A DNA stretch of 64,000 nucleotides, taken from assembly GCA_963708025.1 (NCBI GenBank), contig CAVPSB010000018.1, positions 448,001 through 512,000 of the forward strand. Reading direction: 5' to 3'. The position numbers were made by a program, and so were the translations under genes. Within the stretch, counting starts at the first letter, position 1; the number at the start of each line of letters is the position of its first letter. The DNA is from an uncultured Candidatus Rokubacteria bacterium (GTDB lineage: Bacteria; Methylomirabilota; Methylomirabilia; Rokubacteriales; DASRDR01). Shown one piece after another: positions 18,801-24,237 of this stretch. The notes below the pieces were generated by a model. It was given only the letters and a program-made list of their open reading frames with translations, had not been told where the DNA came from and did no database searches.

Positions 18801-21156
18801 GATCGGTCGGCGAGCTCGCGATCACTCGCAGAATCTCGCCCGTGGCGGTCTGCTGGTCGAGCGCCTCTTTCGTCTCGTTGAATAGCCGGACGTTCTCGAT
18901 CGCGATCACGGCCTGGTCGGCAAACGTCTTGAGCAGCCGTATCTGATCATCCGAGAATGGACCCACCCGCGCGCGCGACACTGCGATTGCTCCGATGGGG
19001 CGCCCCTCTCGCAGTAAGGGTACCGCCACGAGGCTTTGGCCCCCGGTACGGGATACGTATTCCTGGTCGTAGTCCGGATCCTGCCGCGTGTCGGGGATAT
19101 GGACAATCGCGCGGTCCACGATCGCTCGGGGCAGCGCGAAGGCTCGGGAGAGTCGCATAGGGTACCGCGGCGCAAGGACCTTCAGCCGGTCAGGAGCGAT
19201 GTCGTAGGCGGCGACAAGGTGAGCCAGCTCCCCGTCCAAACGGATGACAGCACCCGCGTCTCCCTCGCACAGCTGGACCGCACTCCGTGCGATGGTGTCG
19301 AACACGGGTTGGACATCGGTCGGGGAGCTACTGATTACTCGAAGGATCTCCGCCGTCGCCGTCTGCTGCTCGAGCGACTCGGTCAGCTCAGCGTTCCGCG
19401 CCTGCAGCTCGTGGAACAGCCGGACGTTCTCGATGGCGATGACCGCTTGGTTGGCAAAGGTCTCTAGGAGTTCGATCTGCCTCGCCGAGAAGGGCCGAGC
19501 GTCCGCCCGGCGGATCAGGATGGCGCCCAGAGGCACGCCCTCGCGGAGGAGCGGCGTGGCCAGAAGCGTCCGGATCCTTATCGACGTGCCCTCGGATGCG
19601 AGTGCCCGCGTTTCCGGGAACTCCGTCTCGGGCAACGCCAGGAGGTCTTCGACGTGAATCGTCCGTCGCTCTAGCACGGCCCGGCCCGTCACATGCCCAC
19701 GCCTGGCAGGGACTATGTCCCCGATACTCAGAGGCCTCGGCAGCACTCCGTGCTGAGCGACGAATCGCAAGACTTCCCCATCGAAACGAAAGATGGCCGA
19801 ATCGATGGCACCGCAGACCCGCGCGGCGTTCTCGGCTACCGTGTCCATGACCGGCTGGAGATCGGTCGGCGAGCTCGCGATCACCCGCAGGATTTCGCCC
19901 GTCGCGGTCTGCTGATCCAGCGCCTCGGTCACCTGCGCGTGTGCTTGTGTGAGGGCACGGTTCTTCTCTTGGAGTTCCGTGAACAGCCTCACGTTCTCGA
20001 TCGCAATCACCGCCTGGTTCGCGAACGTCTCGAGCAGCGCGATTTGCTCGTCGGAGAATGGCGTCGGCTCGGCCCGCGACACGCTCACCGCCCCGATAGC
20101 ACGGCCCTCCTGGAGCATCGGCGCCACCAGGATGCTCCGATACCCGAGGGCTCGCCCTCGAGCGCGGGACCACTCGGACATCGTCGGATCGGTCTCGACG
20201 TCGAGAACGTGGACGATTCGGCCGCCCTCCGAGATTGCTCGGTCGATCAGGCTTTCCAGGGTGCCCAGGCGTCGGGGATACGCACGGTGAAGCCGCTCGA
20301 GGGCGTCCGGCGTCGTGTGGTTGGTCGCCACCAGATGGAGCATCTCACCGTCATAACGCGCGACGGTACTGTAGAGACCCGAGCAGAGGCGCACGGCGCT
20401 GGCCGCGATCGCGTCGAAGACGGGCTGGAGGTCGGTCGGCGAGCTCGCGATCACCCGCAGGATCTCGGCCGTGGCGATCTGTTGCTCGAGCGCCTCTTTC
20501 GTCTCGTTGAACAGGCGGACGTTCTCGATGGCGATGACCGCCTGGTTGGCGAAGGTCTCGACTAGCTCGATCTGCTTGTCGGTGAAGGGCTGCGGCACGG
20601 TTTTCGCGACGAAGATCACGCCGACGACTCTACCCTCGCGCAAGAGCGGGGCGCCGAGCGCGGCCCGCCAGTCGCCAATGTCCTGAGCGCCACTCCAGGC
20701 ATAGTCCGTCTCGGCCAGCACATCGGCCACCTGAACAACTCTGGCCTCCAGCGCGGCTCGCCCGGTGATGCTGCCATGATTCACCGGGACCGGGCGGCTC
20801 TTGAAATAGTCCCTGATTCGTGCGTGCACCTCGGTCGCAAGACCGAAACTGGCGGCGTAGCGGAAGATTTCGCCCTCGCGCTGGAACAGCAAGGCATGAT
20901 CGGCATCGCAAAGCCGGACGGCCGACTCGCAGAGTGCGTCGAGCACGGTCTGCAGGTCGAACGCCGAGCGGCTGATGACCTTTAGCACATCGGCGGTGGC
21001 GGTCTGCTGCTGCAGCGCCTCGGTCAGGGCGTGCTGAAGGTCTTCATATGACTGTCCTCGGGGGCCGGTCTCGCGCGTAGGCGTAAAAGGCGTACCACAT
21101 TCAAGACAGAACTTGGCGTGCGAGGGGTTGTCCTGATGGCACCGGACACACTTCAT
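15883..21156 (-). CDS. Zinc ribbon + six GAF domains fused to a truncated AAA-ATPase/TPR module (internal deletion, frameshifts)
   Basis: CVRC...FCLECG; six QQ(T/I)AT...IAIENVRLF-type GAF units, the sixth cut at RPFSEAQ and joined to SLPTARVLLLVNYRPEY; TPR tail similar to the 10320-14484 gene. Confidence 0.85.
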
Positions 21157-21213
21157 ACCGCGGCCTCCAACTGGGGCAGCCGGACCGGTCTCCGACGCAG
21201 AACGAATGGGGGG

Positions 21214-21242
21214 AGCTTAGCCGGTGGTTCCCCCGGGGTCAA
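21214..21242 (-). promoter_or_regulatory. Sigma70-like promoter for the GAF gene
   Basis: Minus strand TTGACC-N17-TAAGCT, ~60 nt upstream of ATG 21156. Confidence 0.55.
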
Positions 21243-21423
21243 GGATCGCCGATTCGGCGCGGAACCGTAGTCTAACCCGCACGTGCGCCGGCGGAGCGAG
21301 CAACGCGAGCCCGCCGCCCGCTGAAGCGTGATGATTCTCATTCAGGCCTCCTCCCTGCCACCGGCAGGGTAAGGTGATTGCGGCCAAACAACACCCGCCC
21401 CACCGGGGCAAGGAGGAGACCGG

Positions 21424-22476
21424 ATGAGATTCTACACAACGCAGCACCGATACTACTGCGGCATCGATCTGCACGCCCGACACGATGTACGTCTGCGTCC
21501 TCGACGCCGAGGGCAAGGTGCGCGTCCACCGCAACGGCCCGGCCAGCCCGGAGCACTTCCTGGCCACGATCGCGCCGTACCGCGAGGATCGTCGTCGTGG
21601 CCGTCGAGTGCATCTTCACCTGGTACTGGCTCGCCGATCTCTGCGCCCAGGAGGGCATCCCCTTCGTCCTCGGCCACGCCCTCTACATGAAGGCCATCCA
21701 CGGCGGCAAGGCCAAGAACGACAAGATCGACTGCCCACAAGATCGCCGTGCTGCTCCGCGGCGGCATGATCCCCATGGCCTACGTCTACCCGCGCGAGAT
21801 GCGGGCCACCCGCGATCTGCTGCGCCGGCGCTGCCACCTCATGCGCAAGCGCGCCGAGCTCCTCGCCCACATCCAGAACACCACCAGCCAGTACAACCTG
21901 CCCGCGCTTCGGCAAGAAGATCGCCTACAAGGCCAACCGCGACCGGCGTGGCCGAGCACTTCCCCGATCCCGAGGTCCGCAAGAGCATCGAGACGAACCT
22001 CGCCCTGCTCGATCACTACGATCGGCTGCTCACCGACCTCGAGCTGCACCTCACCCGCACCGCCAAGGTGCCACGACCCCAACGCCTTCTACCGCCTGCG
22101 CTCGGTGCCCGGGATCGGCAAGATCCTGGCCCTGGTGATCCTCTACGAGATCCACGACATCGACCGCTTCCCCCGCGTCCAGGACTTCGTCTCCTACTGC
22201 CGCCTGGTCAAGTGCGCCAAGGAGTCCGCCGGCAAGCACTACGGGTACTCGGGCAAGAAGATCGGCAACGCCCATCTCAAGTGGGCCTTCTCCGAGGCCG
22301 CCGTCCTCTTCTTGCGCAAGAACCCCGCGGGCCAGCACTACGTCGCGACGCCTCGCGCCAGCAAGCACGGCAAGGCCAAGGCGCTCACCATCCTGGCCCA
22401 CAAGCTGGGCGCGGGCCGTCTACTACATGCTCCACGCGCCAGCAGGCCTTCGATCCGAAGACGTTCTTTGGCCTGA
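21424..22476 (+). CDS. IS110 DEDD recombinase/transposase (frameshifted)
   Basis: YCGIDLH, VAVEC, KAKNDKID, RSVPGIGKILA, ESAGK, GNAHLKWAFSEAA, AHKL. Confidence 0.92.
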
Positions 22477-23158
22477 GCGGGACCAGCGAGACGTCCGCGT
22501 TGCGCGCCGAGGCCGAACACGACGCTCTGCTGGTAGGCCGGGGATCAGCCGGCGTTCAGAGCGCGAGGCCTAGGACGCGCACGTCCGTGTGCGCGCGAAT
22601 CCACGGTGGCCGCCATGACCAGCCGACCGAGCGAACGCTGACGACTCGAGGGGAACGGAAGAGCCTTCCGCCTAACTGGACCTGCCTGAGGGACCGAGCC
22701 CGACCGATGCCGCGTCGATCCTGCGGCCGCGACCGCCTGCCGGCATCTGGGCCGTGATGGTCCCGGAGTCCTGGCGTTGATTGGACTCCCGTTCCCGCTC
22801 GACGATCTTCTCGGCGCGCCGTTCGGCCCGAGAGCTGTGGGCTGCCCCTCACCCGAGCCGCGAGCTAACTGGACCGGTCAACGCGACCAGAGCCCGACGC
22901 TTTGAATCGGCCGGCGACGAGGGAACCGATGAGTTTCTAGGCCGCGGAGAGGCTGCGTTCTCTCCGCTCCGGTGACCCGACGGCTATCCGTGTCGCCGGA
23001 TCGAGCGTCGATAAGTGTTTGGTGCAGACCGCAGAGTCTGACGCCGCCTGTCGGAAATCAAGTCAGCGCACGTCTCGCGGACCCGGACGTCGTGCCGCTT
23101 CGTCACGCGGGAGCCCCTCCGCCCCCGCGACGGGAGCGGTGTCGTCCTCTTGACAACT
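22477..23158 (+). ncRNA. Candidate bridge/seek RNA region in the IS right end
   Basis: Non-coding ~680 nt; GATAAGTG (23010-23017) copies the donor end, is followed by a hairpin and GGAAATCA; duplicated GAGCC-N5/6-CTAACTGGACC modules. Confidence 0.6.
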
Positions 23159-23424
23159 GGAGGCCTGATAAGTGTTGGGCGATCGATGTCTCGGCCCCAG
23201 TTGCACAGACAGATCACTACGGATTTCCCGGCCTGCGAAAGGAGTAGTTCGCGGCCGCCGATACCTGCGACCCGGTGGTAGCTCTGCCTGGACCAGTAGC
23301 CCTTGTAGACAGCGGTCACAGGACGATCAGTTCTATGCGTCTGCTGCCGGAAGGCTTCTTGAAGAATCTCCCGCCGTGACAGGGGTCGGCCGGCGATCCG
23401 GGCCGATTTGGCTCATGAACGGGC

Positions 23425-23715
23425 TCATACGGACGGGCCCGCGCGTCCCACCGTCGATTCCGCGCGGTTTTGCGTGGCTGAGGACAACGGTCTCTGGGAC
23501 CGGCGCGGTCGGCCGAGGCCCTGCTCCCGCGCCTCCAGCCAGCGCAGCAGCCTAGCCTTCGGGAAGCGGACCGTGCGGCCGATCCTCAAGACGGGCATGC
23601 TGGCGTCCTCGCTGGCCCACCGGAAGACGGACTTGACGCTGACCTGCAGCATCTCGGCGAGCTGCTCGGCCGTCCAATACTCCTTCACCGGCGCCGCTGC
23701 GAGAAGGTCAGGCAT
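23425..23715 (-). CDS. Excisionase-like HTH (HTH_17/AlpA-like)
   Basis: YWTAEQLAEMLQVSVKSVFRWA...PVLRIGRTVRFPKARLLRWL. Confidence 0.85.
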   Translation of the reverse strand: MPDLLAAAPVKEYWTAEQLAEMLQVSVKSVFRWASEDASMPVLRIGRTVRFPKARLLRWLEAREQGLGRPRRSQRPLSSATQNRAESTVGRAGPSV

Positions 23716-24237
23716 CGACGAGCCCCCATGGCCGAGCGAACCCATCGGGCGGCCGAGGCGGCTCAACGCCATGACCGCGTGCTTCTACCGGGACCGACGC
23801 GAGGCGATGAAAAACTGGCGCCTGCTGCAGCGGTTGGGCTTGTTGGATGACTACCTCCGAGCCTCCCCACGCGACACTCAAGACTGCGAAGCTGTCCCTT
23901 GGTGTCGCCGGTGAGGCCGGTTGCTGGCTCGAGCTGTCTCTGGATCACGAGCCCGCTCCCTCCGTCGAGTCGTTGTCCGCCGAGGCCCTTTCGCTGCTCG
24001 ACGAGCTCACGTGGATGTCGCGCTCGGCGAGCCACGTGCGGATGGCGTCCTCGCCGCGGAGGGTGTCCGCACAGATGAGGACGTCGGTCGCGATGAATGC
24101 GTGACCCCGGCAGGAGCCGATGATCAGAATGCTCGAACCCTGACCAGGCCCCGGTGTCTGGCGGCTGGTGGTTGGAAGCTCCGACTTGTCTGGTGAAATG
24201 CGCCTGGCTGCCATGTCGTCGTCCGTCGGCCCGTCTC

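Follow-up and report, generated by a model that had tools for sequence, protein, structure and literature searches.

Insertion sequences (IS) of the IS1111 group of the IS110 family are marked by subterminal inverted repeats, 7-17 bp in length (PMC11208160), and by a long non-coding region downstream of the transposase (PMC11208160, PMC11187229). In the IS1111 elements ISEc11, ISPa11, ISKpn4 and ISPst6 the guide RNA lies downstream of the transposase, and its top-strand match lies 5' of its bottom-strand match (PMC11187229). The same paper describes an IS1111 circle-junction promoter, as well as short seekRNAs of 70-100 nt, which are characterized by their target matches alone, the binding of the IS ends being stated as not known (PMC11187229). 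Donor-binding nucleotides are placed in a multi-loop "in many IS1111 orthologues" (PMC11208160), and Durrant et al. 2024 predicted bridge RNAs for IS1111 elements that include ISCARN28, ISAzs32 and ISPa11. In IS621 the order is bottom-strand guide, stem-loop, top-strand guide (PMC11208158). The present work analyzes an IS1111-group element of the IS110 family, at positions 21334-23174 in 64,000 nucleotides of DNA from an uncultured Candidatus Rokubacteria bacterium (assembly GCA_963708025.1, contig CAVPSB010000018.1, positions 448,001 to 512,000 of the forward strand). This whole stretch of DNA is called the window, and it holds one decayed copy of the element.

The subterminal repeats of this element are 10 bp long, which lies within the range of the IS1111 group. 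They bracket the transposase gene and the non-coding stretch downstream of it, which extends for about 690 nt from the end of the conserved coding part (about 22470) to the right end, compared to 90 nt of non-coding DNA on the left. The positions of the repeats covary in relatives, and when columns of the left end are compared with the non-coding region by mutual information, the strongest link is the one that joins both repeats. The assignment of the window element to the IS1111 group is supported by these marks.

The region downstream of the transposase is probably the 3' non-coding part of an IS1111-group element inserted at an attC-like site, and as such would encode a bridge or seek RNA with a left-donor guide (LDG) as well as, upstream of it, a right-donor guide (RDG). 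A first-pass annotation of the window had proposed that positions 22985-23090 form the donor-binding loop of a bridge RNA, in which two guides flank a hairpin. That interpretation is partly supported: the left-donor guide and the hairpin are borne out, while the second guide (GGAAATCA) and the IS621-like layout are not. The features on which the argument turns are as follows.

21332-21333, + strand: core dinucleotide TG at the left junction, after the attC-like left flank GCCCGCTGAA (21316-21325)
21334-21341, + strand: left IS end (right donor, RD), ATTCTCAT; ATACTCAT-like in relatives, with positions 3-10 covarying with 22928-34
21342-21351, + strand: left subterminal inverted repeat TCAGGCCTCC, whose 10 nt are perfectly repeated in inverse orientation at 23159-23168
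22928-22938, + strand: best RDG candidate, GATGAGT (22928-34) followed by TTCT (22935-38), complementary to the left end (ACTCAT-type)
23011-23019, + strand: LDG, consisting of ATAAG (right end), TG (core) and TT (first 2 nt of the target flank)
23021-23045, + strand: conserved hairpin of 9 pairs, with a bulged A at 23041 and a loop at 23030-35, from covariance model R1
23053-23066, + strand: conserved block GGAAATCAAGTCAG, which holds GGAAATCA; GAAAYNAAGTCRG in relatives
23159-23168, + strand: right subterminal inverted repeat GGAGGCCTGA, 10/10 with the left repeat and kept in relatives
23168-23180, + strand: right junction, with ATAAG (left donor), the TG core (23173-74) and TTGGGC of the target flank

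Donor guides, core and hairpin

A protein search with the longest intact piece of the transposase (113 aa) yields full-length relatives by the thousand, E being 1e-10 or lower for at least 7,996, with 8,000 candidates scored. Among the best 120, full-length relatives are 80-89% identical to this piece and mostly contain both PF01548 and PF02371. Six full-length relatives were aligned (alignment A1), and one genome per species was then scanned. Among the pattern-matched stretches examined, 562 of 610 encode relatives (at least 562 overall), and 79 loci, with transposase identities of about 59-85%, were kept; in L010, L011, L045 and L048, for example, the tblastn match covers the full length. 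These loci come from Nitrospirota, Desulfobacterota, Planctomycetota, Binatia, Rokubacteria, Acidobacteriota, Gemmatimonadota and others, and the lineage is a very widely exchanged element across many bacterial phyla; one locus (L034) lies on a contig binned as Heimdallarchaeota. A search of plasmid DNA gave matches in three Candidatus Manganitrophus records, in the coding part alone; the non-coding part is too diverged for blastn among plasmids. In one of these records, compared by eye, the internal motif and the right end are the same as in the window. The sole Klebsiella plasmid match to the transposase piece shows 39.7% identity over 60% of the piece. Mutual information on the MAFFT alignment A2 recovered the subterminal repeats only, and the guides became visible once the alignment was anchored on motifs.

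The first of the two annotated guides is an internal copy of the right end. GATAAGTG indeed occurs both at 23010-17 and at 23167-74, and the identity extends, as had also been stated, over 10 nt (GATAAGTGTT); taken further, 12 of 13 positions agree. On both strands of the 64 kb, and with up to one mismatch allowed, the 10-mer is found at 23010 and 23167 alone; 0.16 occurrences are expected, and two are reached in 1 of 100 shuffles. The inclusion of its first G in the match did not hold up in the relatives, where the base before ATA agrees with the right end in 12 of 64 loci; this G is therefore a coincidence, and only 9 of the 10 nt are common to the relatives. The match reads better as one chance base, five bases of the right end, the 2-nt core and two bases that equal the target flank.

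The motif ATAxxTGTT-TGGTGCAG lies about 1,400 nt past the start codon in 72 of 82 loci, several of the others ending earlier. Its variable dinucleotide is that of the right end in 59 of 66 loci (AG in 42, GG in 13, CG in two, GA in one and TG in one), and the whole 7-mer is identical in 52 of the 66. When the ends were shuffled among loci, the observed identity between guide and end was reached in 0 of 5000 permutations. A tree of the coding region offers 8-9 independent contrasts, in 5-7 of which a switch in the guide is matched by the end, with none opposed (sign test, p about 0.03). The covariation with the donor end that had been named as a check on this 8-mer is thus found, as its variable positions and the core follow the right end. 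The TT after the core matches the target flank and not the other IS end. It is near-invariant on both sides (61 of 65 loci), and for its covariation one locus speaks in favor (L079, TA with TA) and three against.

The core is taken to be TG because this dinucleotide stands at both junctions, and because CG stands at both in one relative (L053); from this core follows the extent of the element, 21334-23174 or 1,841 bp. TG is present at 47 of 50 unique left junctions and at 43 of 54 right junctions, the exceptions on the right side being GG or AG. In L053, CG is found also in the donor guide and in both target-type guides. The core dinucleotide is common to the donor guide, the target guides and both junctions, as in IS621. 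The right ends of relatives read TTGACA-N-GGAGGCCT-N-ATAxxTGTT, followed by a diverging flank, and copies within the same genome diverge immediately past TGTT. Their left ends read flank-TG-ATACTCAT-TAAGGCCTCC.

The hairpin follows the guide as annotated: GGTGCAGAC (23021-29) pairs with GTCTGACGCC (23036-45) in nine pairs, with one bulged A. A covariance model (R1), built from the guide, the hairpin and the following block, has one match in the window and finds matches in 74 of 83 sources, all of them on the transposase strand. Within the R1 alignment, 84.5% of the cells are paired, compared to 40-47% when the partners are slid, although the alignment is fitted to the model, which favors such figures. 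Double changes occur in six of the nine pairs (47 cells), and the observed score is reached by no shuffle. About 46 of the hairpin cells hold G-U pairs, in whose place the opposite strand would have A-C mismatches, and the hairpin is therefore read as a helix of the + strand RNA. RNAalifold on MAFFT alignments yields 3 pairs because the 3' strand of the hairpin is misaligned there, a fault which R1 resolves. Comparison with relatives, the sole source of support here, thus indicates that the hairpin is a real RNA helix. Since the dinucleotide matches the ends with independent switches, and since the adjoining hairpin covaries and contains G-U pairs that fit the + strand, the internal copy of the right end is well supported as the predicted left-donor guide of a bridge or seek RNA.

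The left end has its counterpart in the upstream segment at 22928-22938. This segment lies just 5' of a conserved TTTCTAGG, 60-100 nt ahead of the LDG (about 80 in the window), and in relatives it is the reverse complement of left-end positions 3-10, as exemplified by the combinations ATGAGT/ACTCAT, ATAAGT/ACTTAT, ATTAGT/ACTAAT and ATAGT/ACTAT. Its pairing with the left end amounts to 5.38 of 8 positions, compared to 4.70 +/- 0.12 with shuffled ends (0/5000), and its register ranks first in an unbiased scan of all registers, with z up to 5.6. At one position, 41 of 53 loci are paired (GC 18, TA 10, AT 8, TG 4, CG 1), so that five standard pair types are seen, four Watson-Crick and one wobble. 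Independent contrasts are concordant in 4.8 of 6 and 3.5 of 6, and none is opposed. In the window, 6 of the 8 bases in TCTCATTC are paired by the segment. Both donor guides are thus conserved and covary with the element's ends, and they are accompanied by the common core and by the covarying hairpin.

The covarying segment lies 5' of the LDG, and the donor-binding bases would therefore be multi-branched, with the order of the guides reversed compared to IS621. Two small hairpins are found between the RDG and the LDG, which agrees with the multi-loop remark on IS1111 orthologues (PMC11208160) and with the reversed order of matches in seekRNAs (PMC11187229). A candidate helix of GAGGG (22920) with CCUC ahead of the guide is frequent in constrained folds and longer in L020 and L070, the window having GCGUC instead; judged by eye, it shows no clean compensation.

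In the proposed mechanism, the non-coding region would be read from the + strand as a portion of a long bridge or seek RNA, probably made from the circle-junction promoter and presumably bound by the recombinase. ATAAGTG (23011-17) would represent the top strand of the right end with its TG core and, since the guide carries top-strand sequence, it is the donor's bottom strand with which the RNA would pair. The TT after the guide would serve as handshake-like bases that fit the recombination product, and the hairpin at 23021-45 as a structural helix adjoining the guide. GATGAGT(TTCT) at 22928-38 would be the partner guide, the top-strand guide being placed 5' of the bottom-strand guide in a multi-branched loop, of which the exact fold is a predicted one. 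The target-binding pair, GCCTAAC at 22670 and TTGAT at 22777, would lie farther upstream in the same order.

Weighing of the alternatives

Several results weigh against an RNA with these two donor guides. The transposase of the window copy is broken. In 14 of 66 loci the LDG 7-mer is not identical to the right end; for 10 of these 14 the differing position is the junction's first core base, which the target may have contributed, and in L008, L013, L014 and L029 guide and right end differ at two positions. The independent contrasts of the RDG do not reach p = 0.05, its mean pairing is only 5.4 of 8, and some lineages fit it poorly (AATTGT type compared to ACTCAT). The minimum-energy fold of the window sequence leaves the upstream guide partly buried. 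Folded alone, 22985-23090 (106 nt) has z = +0.26 compared to shuffles, and 22895-23075 has z = -1.91, which is not exceptional. A candidate helix between the 22900 block and the 23053 block was rejected (-6.89 for cognate and -6.76 for non-cognate combinations, 1537/5000), and the loop-closing helices are not fixed. An Rfam scan that covered 20800-24000 and allowed E up to 1 found no family match, its four weak matches each being far below the gathering score and none lying within 22500-23180. Three conserved blocks (22863-73, 22900-10 and 23053-66) are left unexplained by the donor and target guides, and the permutation tests, in which ends are shuffled among loci, ignore relatedness.

The layout of the first-pass annotation, an IS621-style internal loop in which the LDG (23010-17) and an RDG at GGAAATCA (23053-60) flank the hairpin and bind the circle junction, is improbable. 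It would share the order of IS621, the block around GGAAATCA is conserved, and the stated pairing of GGAAATCA with TGATTCTC (21332-39) is present in the window at 7 of 8 positions, one G-T counted. Furthermore, AUCAAG of the block complements the flank-TG-AT of many left junctions, in the manner of a core-proximal guide with handshake bases. Yet both the pairing in the family and the matches in the window are at chance level in this register. The mean over the family is 4.21 of 8 pairs, compared to 4.18 +/- 0.07 with shuffled ends (798 of 2000 as good), and with Watson-Crick pairs only it is 3.12 compared to 3.04, so that the covariation with the donor end proposed as a check on this second 8-mer is absent. 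In the non-coding region, 6 of 681 8-mer positions pair with TGATTCTC equally well or better, where 5.9 are expected, and the chance of one such 8-mer per 32-nt stretch is about 0.19. The positions of GGAAATCA which would lie opposite the invariant core G and the first base of the IS are freely variable (C/U and C/G/U/A, respectively), L053 with its CG core has no matching change in this register, and the left end covaries with another segment (22928-34). The match of GGAAATCA to the left end is a chance match, and no supported complement of the core and right half, such as IS621 possesses, is found on the 3' side of the same stem-loop. The conserved block itself (GAAAYNAAGTCRG in relatives) has the upstream TTGATTGG block as its commonest best partner within the non-coding region. 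With that upstream block, in the region of the left-target guide, it gives -6.64 kcal/mol in cognate and -6.06 kcal/mol in non-cognate combinations (17/5000), and its partner may be the target guide or else the left junction's top strand.

It is very unlikely that the internal copy of the right end acts as DNA, either as an alternative end or pseudo-site, in modular or partial circles, or as a relic of duplication kept alike by recombination. A role at the DNA level would fit ISPpu9, an IS110-family element which forms several kinds of circle (PMC12288879), and it is favored by tandem duplications in two relatives, L080 and L045, the joint in L080 being at the motif. The internal copy, however, has no adjoining subterminal repeat (GAGCGTC as compared to GGAGGCCT), and its 9 common nt are too short for gene conversion to keep the copies alike across phyla. 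The G-U pairs of the adjoining hairpin make sense solely in the + strand RNA, and the logic of guide matching extends to three more segments, which are complementary and not identical to their DNA partners. The broken transposase and the unremarkable fold of the single sequence would likewise suit a view of the repeat and the hairpin as functionless chance features of a decayed element, but this is hardly credible: the 10-mer is unexpected by chance, the module occurs in 74 of 83 sources, in one place and on one strand, and the covariation with the ends and within the helix contradicts such a view. Transposase identities of roughly 60-85% also argue against a recent-copy origin of the loci.

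The duplications in these two relatives are partial and concern the non-coding region (L080:3901-4540 and L045:3920-4320). In L080 the joint falls exactly at the 10-mer of guide and right end, and in L045 it falls between the right end and the upstream guide, which share TGTT. The guide-coding DNA may itself be a pseudo-site or a microhomology.

Target site, other modules and the decayed transposase

Beyond the donor module, the element contains the following features.

21424-22470, + strand: IS110-family (IS1111-type) transposase gene with at least 8 frameshifts, from three-frame reading, tblastn and PF02371
22670-22676, + strand: probable right-target guide GCCTAAC, which complements the attC-type GTTRRRY flank, about 340 nt before the LDG
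22776-22786, + strand: probable left-target guide, G-TTG-AT then TGGAC, in the same sense as the left flank, the core and the first 2 IS nt
22863-22873 and 22900-22910, + strand: second target-like motif pair, AGCTAACTGGA and CTTTGAATCGG, kept in relatives
23150-23155, + strand: TTGACA, likely the -35 box of a promoter which is complete only in the joined circle

The insertion sites have flanks of the form GTCMGCTGCA-N6-TG|TTAGGC, the flank logo, T T A G G C, being directly preceded by the core TG, and from their sequence they resemble the 3' end of integron attC sites, in which GTTRRRY is presumably the core site. Further attC-like sites in the window were sought by a crude pattern and fold filter, and none was found; the rebuilt empty site does not fold as one long hairpin. 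There is no cassette array around the window copy, where arrays and integrase were looked for in the immediate neighbors only.

GCCTAAC pairs with the core G and the flank at 5.79 of 7 positions, compared to 5.57 with shuffled flanks (32/5000, or 6/5000 with Watson-Crick pairs only). GTTGAT (22776) is the same as the left junction at 6.12 of 9 positions, compared to 5.38 when shuffled (0/5000). In this left-target guide L053 carries CG; the guide follows the element's own left end in L041 and L071, but not in L004 and L005. CG is present in L053 also at the position of CTTTGAATCGG (22900-10). The second CTAAC motif, AGCTAACTGGA, was rejected as a target guide, as it shows no covariation with the flank (4.77 compared to 4.81). 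The pair of CTAACTGGA and TTTGAnTnGG (22863 and 22900) mirrors the form of the target-guide pair at 22670 and 22776, and the non-coding region contains four occurrences of a motif YTRAYTGGA. The form of the pair at 22863 and 22900 suggests a third guide-pair module.

A broader design is conceivable, although it is rather doubtful: the guide RNA of this lineage, unusually long at about 400 nt, may comprise two target-type pairs and one donor pair, with handshake bases that extend the bottom-strand guides. Product-matching extensions of 2 nt are found at two sites, namely TTG+AT at 22777 and ATAAGTG+TT at 23011. If this three-module design were true, recombinases of the IS1111 type would exchange the bottom strand first, thereby mirroring IS621, and the extra target-type module and the 23053-66 block would either serve the recognition of the junction at excision or keep the target guide masked.

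In an alignment of 65 right ends, TTGAC shows conservation of 90% or more. No complete sigma-70-like promoter is found within the linear element; in the circle, TTGACA would sit 17-18 nt before TGATTC/GATACT of the left end, and together they would likely form a junction promoter. Just ahead of the -35 box lies a variable hairpin (23095-23140), which is followed by a T run in AT-richer relatives (A2 columns 300-370). In the GC-rich copy of the window, this hairpin is present without the T run. The guide RNA could have its 3' end at this hairpin.

The transposase starts at 21424 (MRFYTTQHRYYCGIDLHA...), and three-frame translation shows that the frame advances by one at least 8 times before the conserved end at about 22470. 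A local tblastn search with the relative P0014 likewise returns the transposase as pieces in alternating frames. The longest intact piece (22072-22410, 113 aa) matches PF02371 with E 1.3e-20, and an N-terminal piece of 48 aa, searched alone against Pfam, gives no match. Since the transposase of this copy is broken, its transposition would be possible only with an enzyme supplied by another copy. All of the frameshifts shift the same way and, compared by eye with relatives, they look like single-base insertions outside homopolymer runs. The conserved pieces contain no in-frame stops, and the best-matching ones are 89-95% identical to P0014. A neighboring gene of 1,423 aa is intact, as are the motifs of the non-coding region. 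The frameshifts could reflect genuine decay, or they could be an artefact that arose in the assembly because the element is repeated. In the Manganitrophus plasmid copies (L001-L003), the transposase is frameshifted as well.

A long imperfect hairpin spans 21341-21431, from the left repeat to the start codon, and attracts weak and meaningless Rfam microRNA matches; it may sequester the ribosome-binding site. The genes which flank the element encode a GAF/zinc-ribbon protein, an HTH_17 protein, a PD-(D/E)XK nuclease and a UvrD helicase.

Relation to described systems

The proposed RNA has much in common with that of IS621, in that one guide corresponds to the left half of the donor with the core, and a second guide complements the right half. 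The core dinucleotide recurs in the target guides, the guide has beside it a stem-loop that contains a bulged A, and extra bases fit the recombination product. Unlike in IS621, the RNA of the window lies 3' of the transposase and its top-strand guide comes first, with two hairpins, and not one, between the donor guides, which makes for a multi-branched layout. It is the bottom-strand guides, and not the top-strand guides, that are extended here by product-matching bases, the core is TG and not CT, and the subterminal repeats measure 10 bp.

The downstream location and the likely circle-junction promoter are shared with the IS1111 seekRNAs (Siddiquee et al. 2024). The order of matches is shared as well, the complementary target match at 22670 preceding the same-sense match at 22777, and the donor match at 22928 preceding that at 23011. 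In contrast to the published seekRNAs, a donor-matching pair of guides is seen here, and the conserved blocks extend over about 400 nt (22670-23066), compared to 145-170 nt for the long seekRNAs. The architecture found in the window may already be shown in the figures or supplements of two 2024 papers.

With regard to the insertion site, the attC target of ISKpn4 is given as CGGCTTGAACGAATTGTTAG, with the insertion point AA*CG (PMC13604230, Table 1). The flanks of the present lineage resemble this target of ISKpn4 and ISPst6, and thereby recall the IS1111-attC group (ISKpn4, ISPst6 and ISPa25), whose members insert in attC sites of integrons. The point of insertion differs from that of ISKpn4 and ISPst6, and hence from that group, since the element is inserted right before TTRRRY (after ...TTG), and AA*CG lies about 8-9 bp upstream.

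The window itself provides an ordinary result, a single decayed copy of a mobile element, and the kind of system is already known; its layout is of interest. RNA-guided recombinases of the IS110 and IS1111 types are under development as programmable tools for genome insertion, and the published IS1111 experiments cover the finding of the target only and leave the recognition of the ends open (PMC11187229). The lineage is a clear comparative case in this respect, in which segments of the putative RNA match both halves of the donor, in an order and geometry unlike those of IS621. It is widespread in environmental bacteria and appears to aim at a second, distinct point of attC-like sites, and its intact relatives would thus be directly testable.

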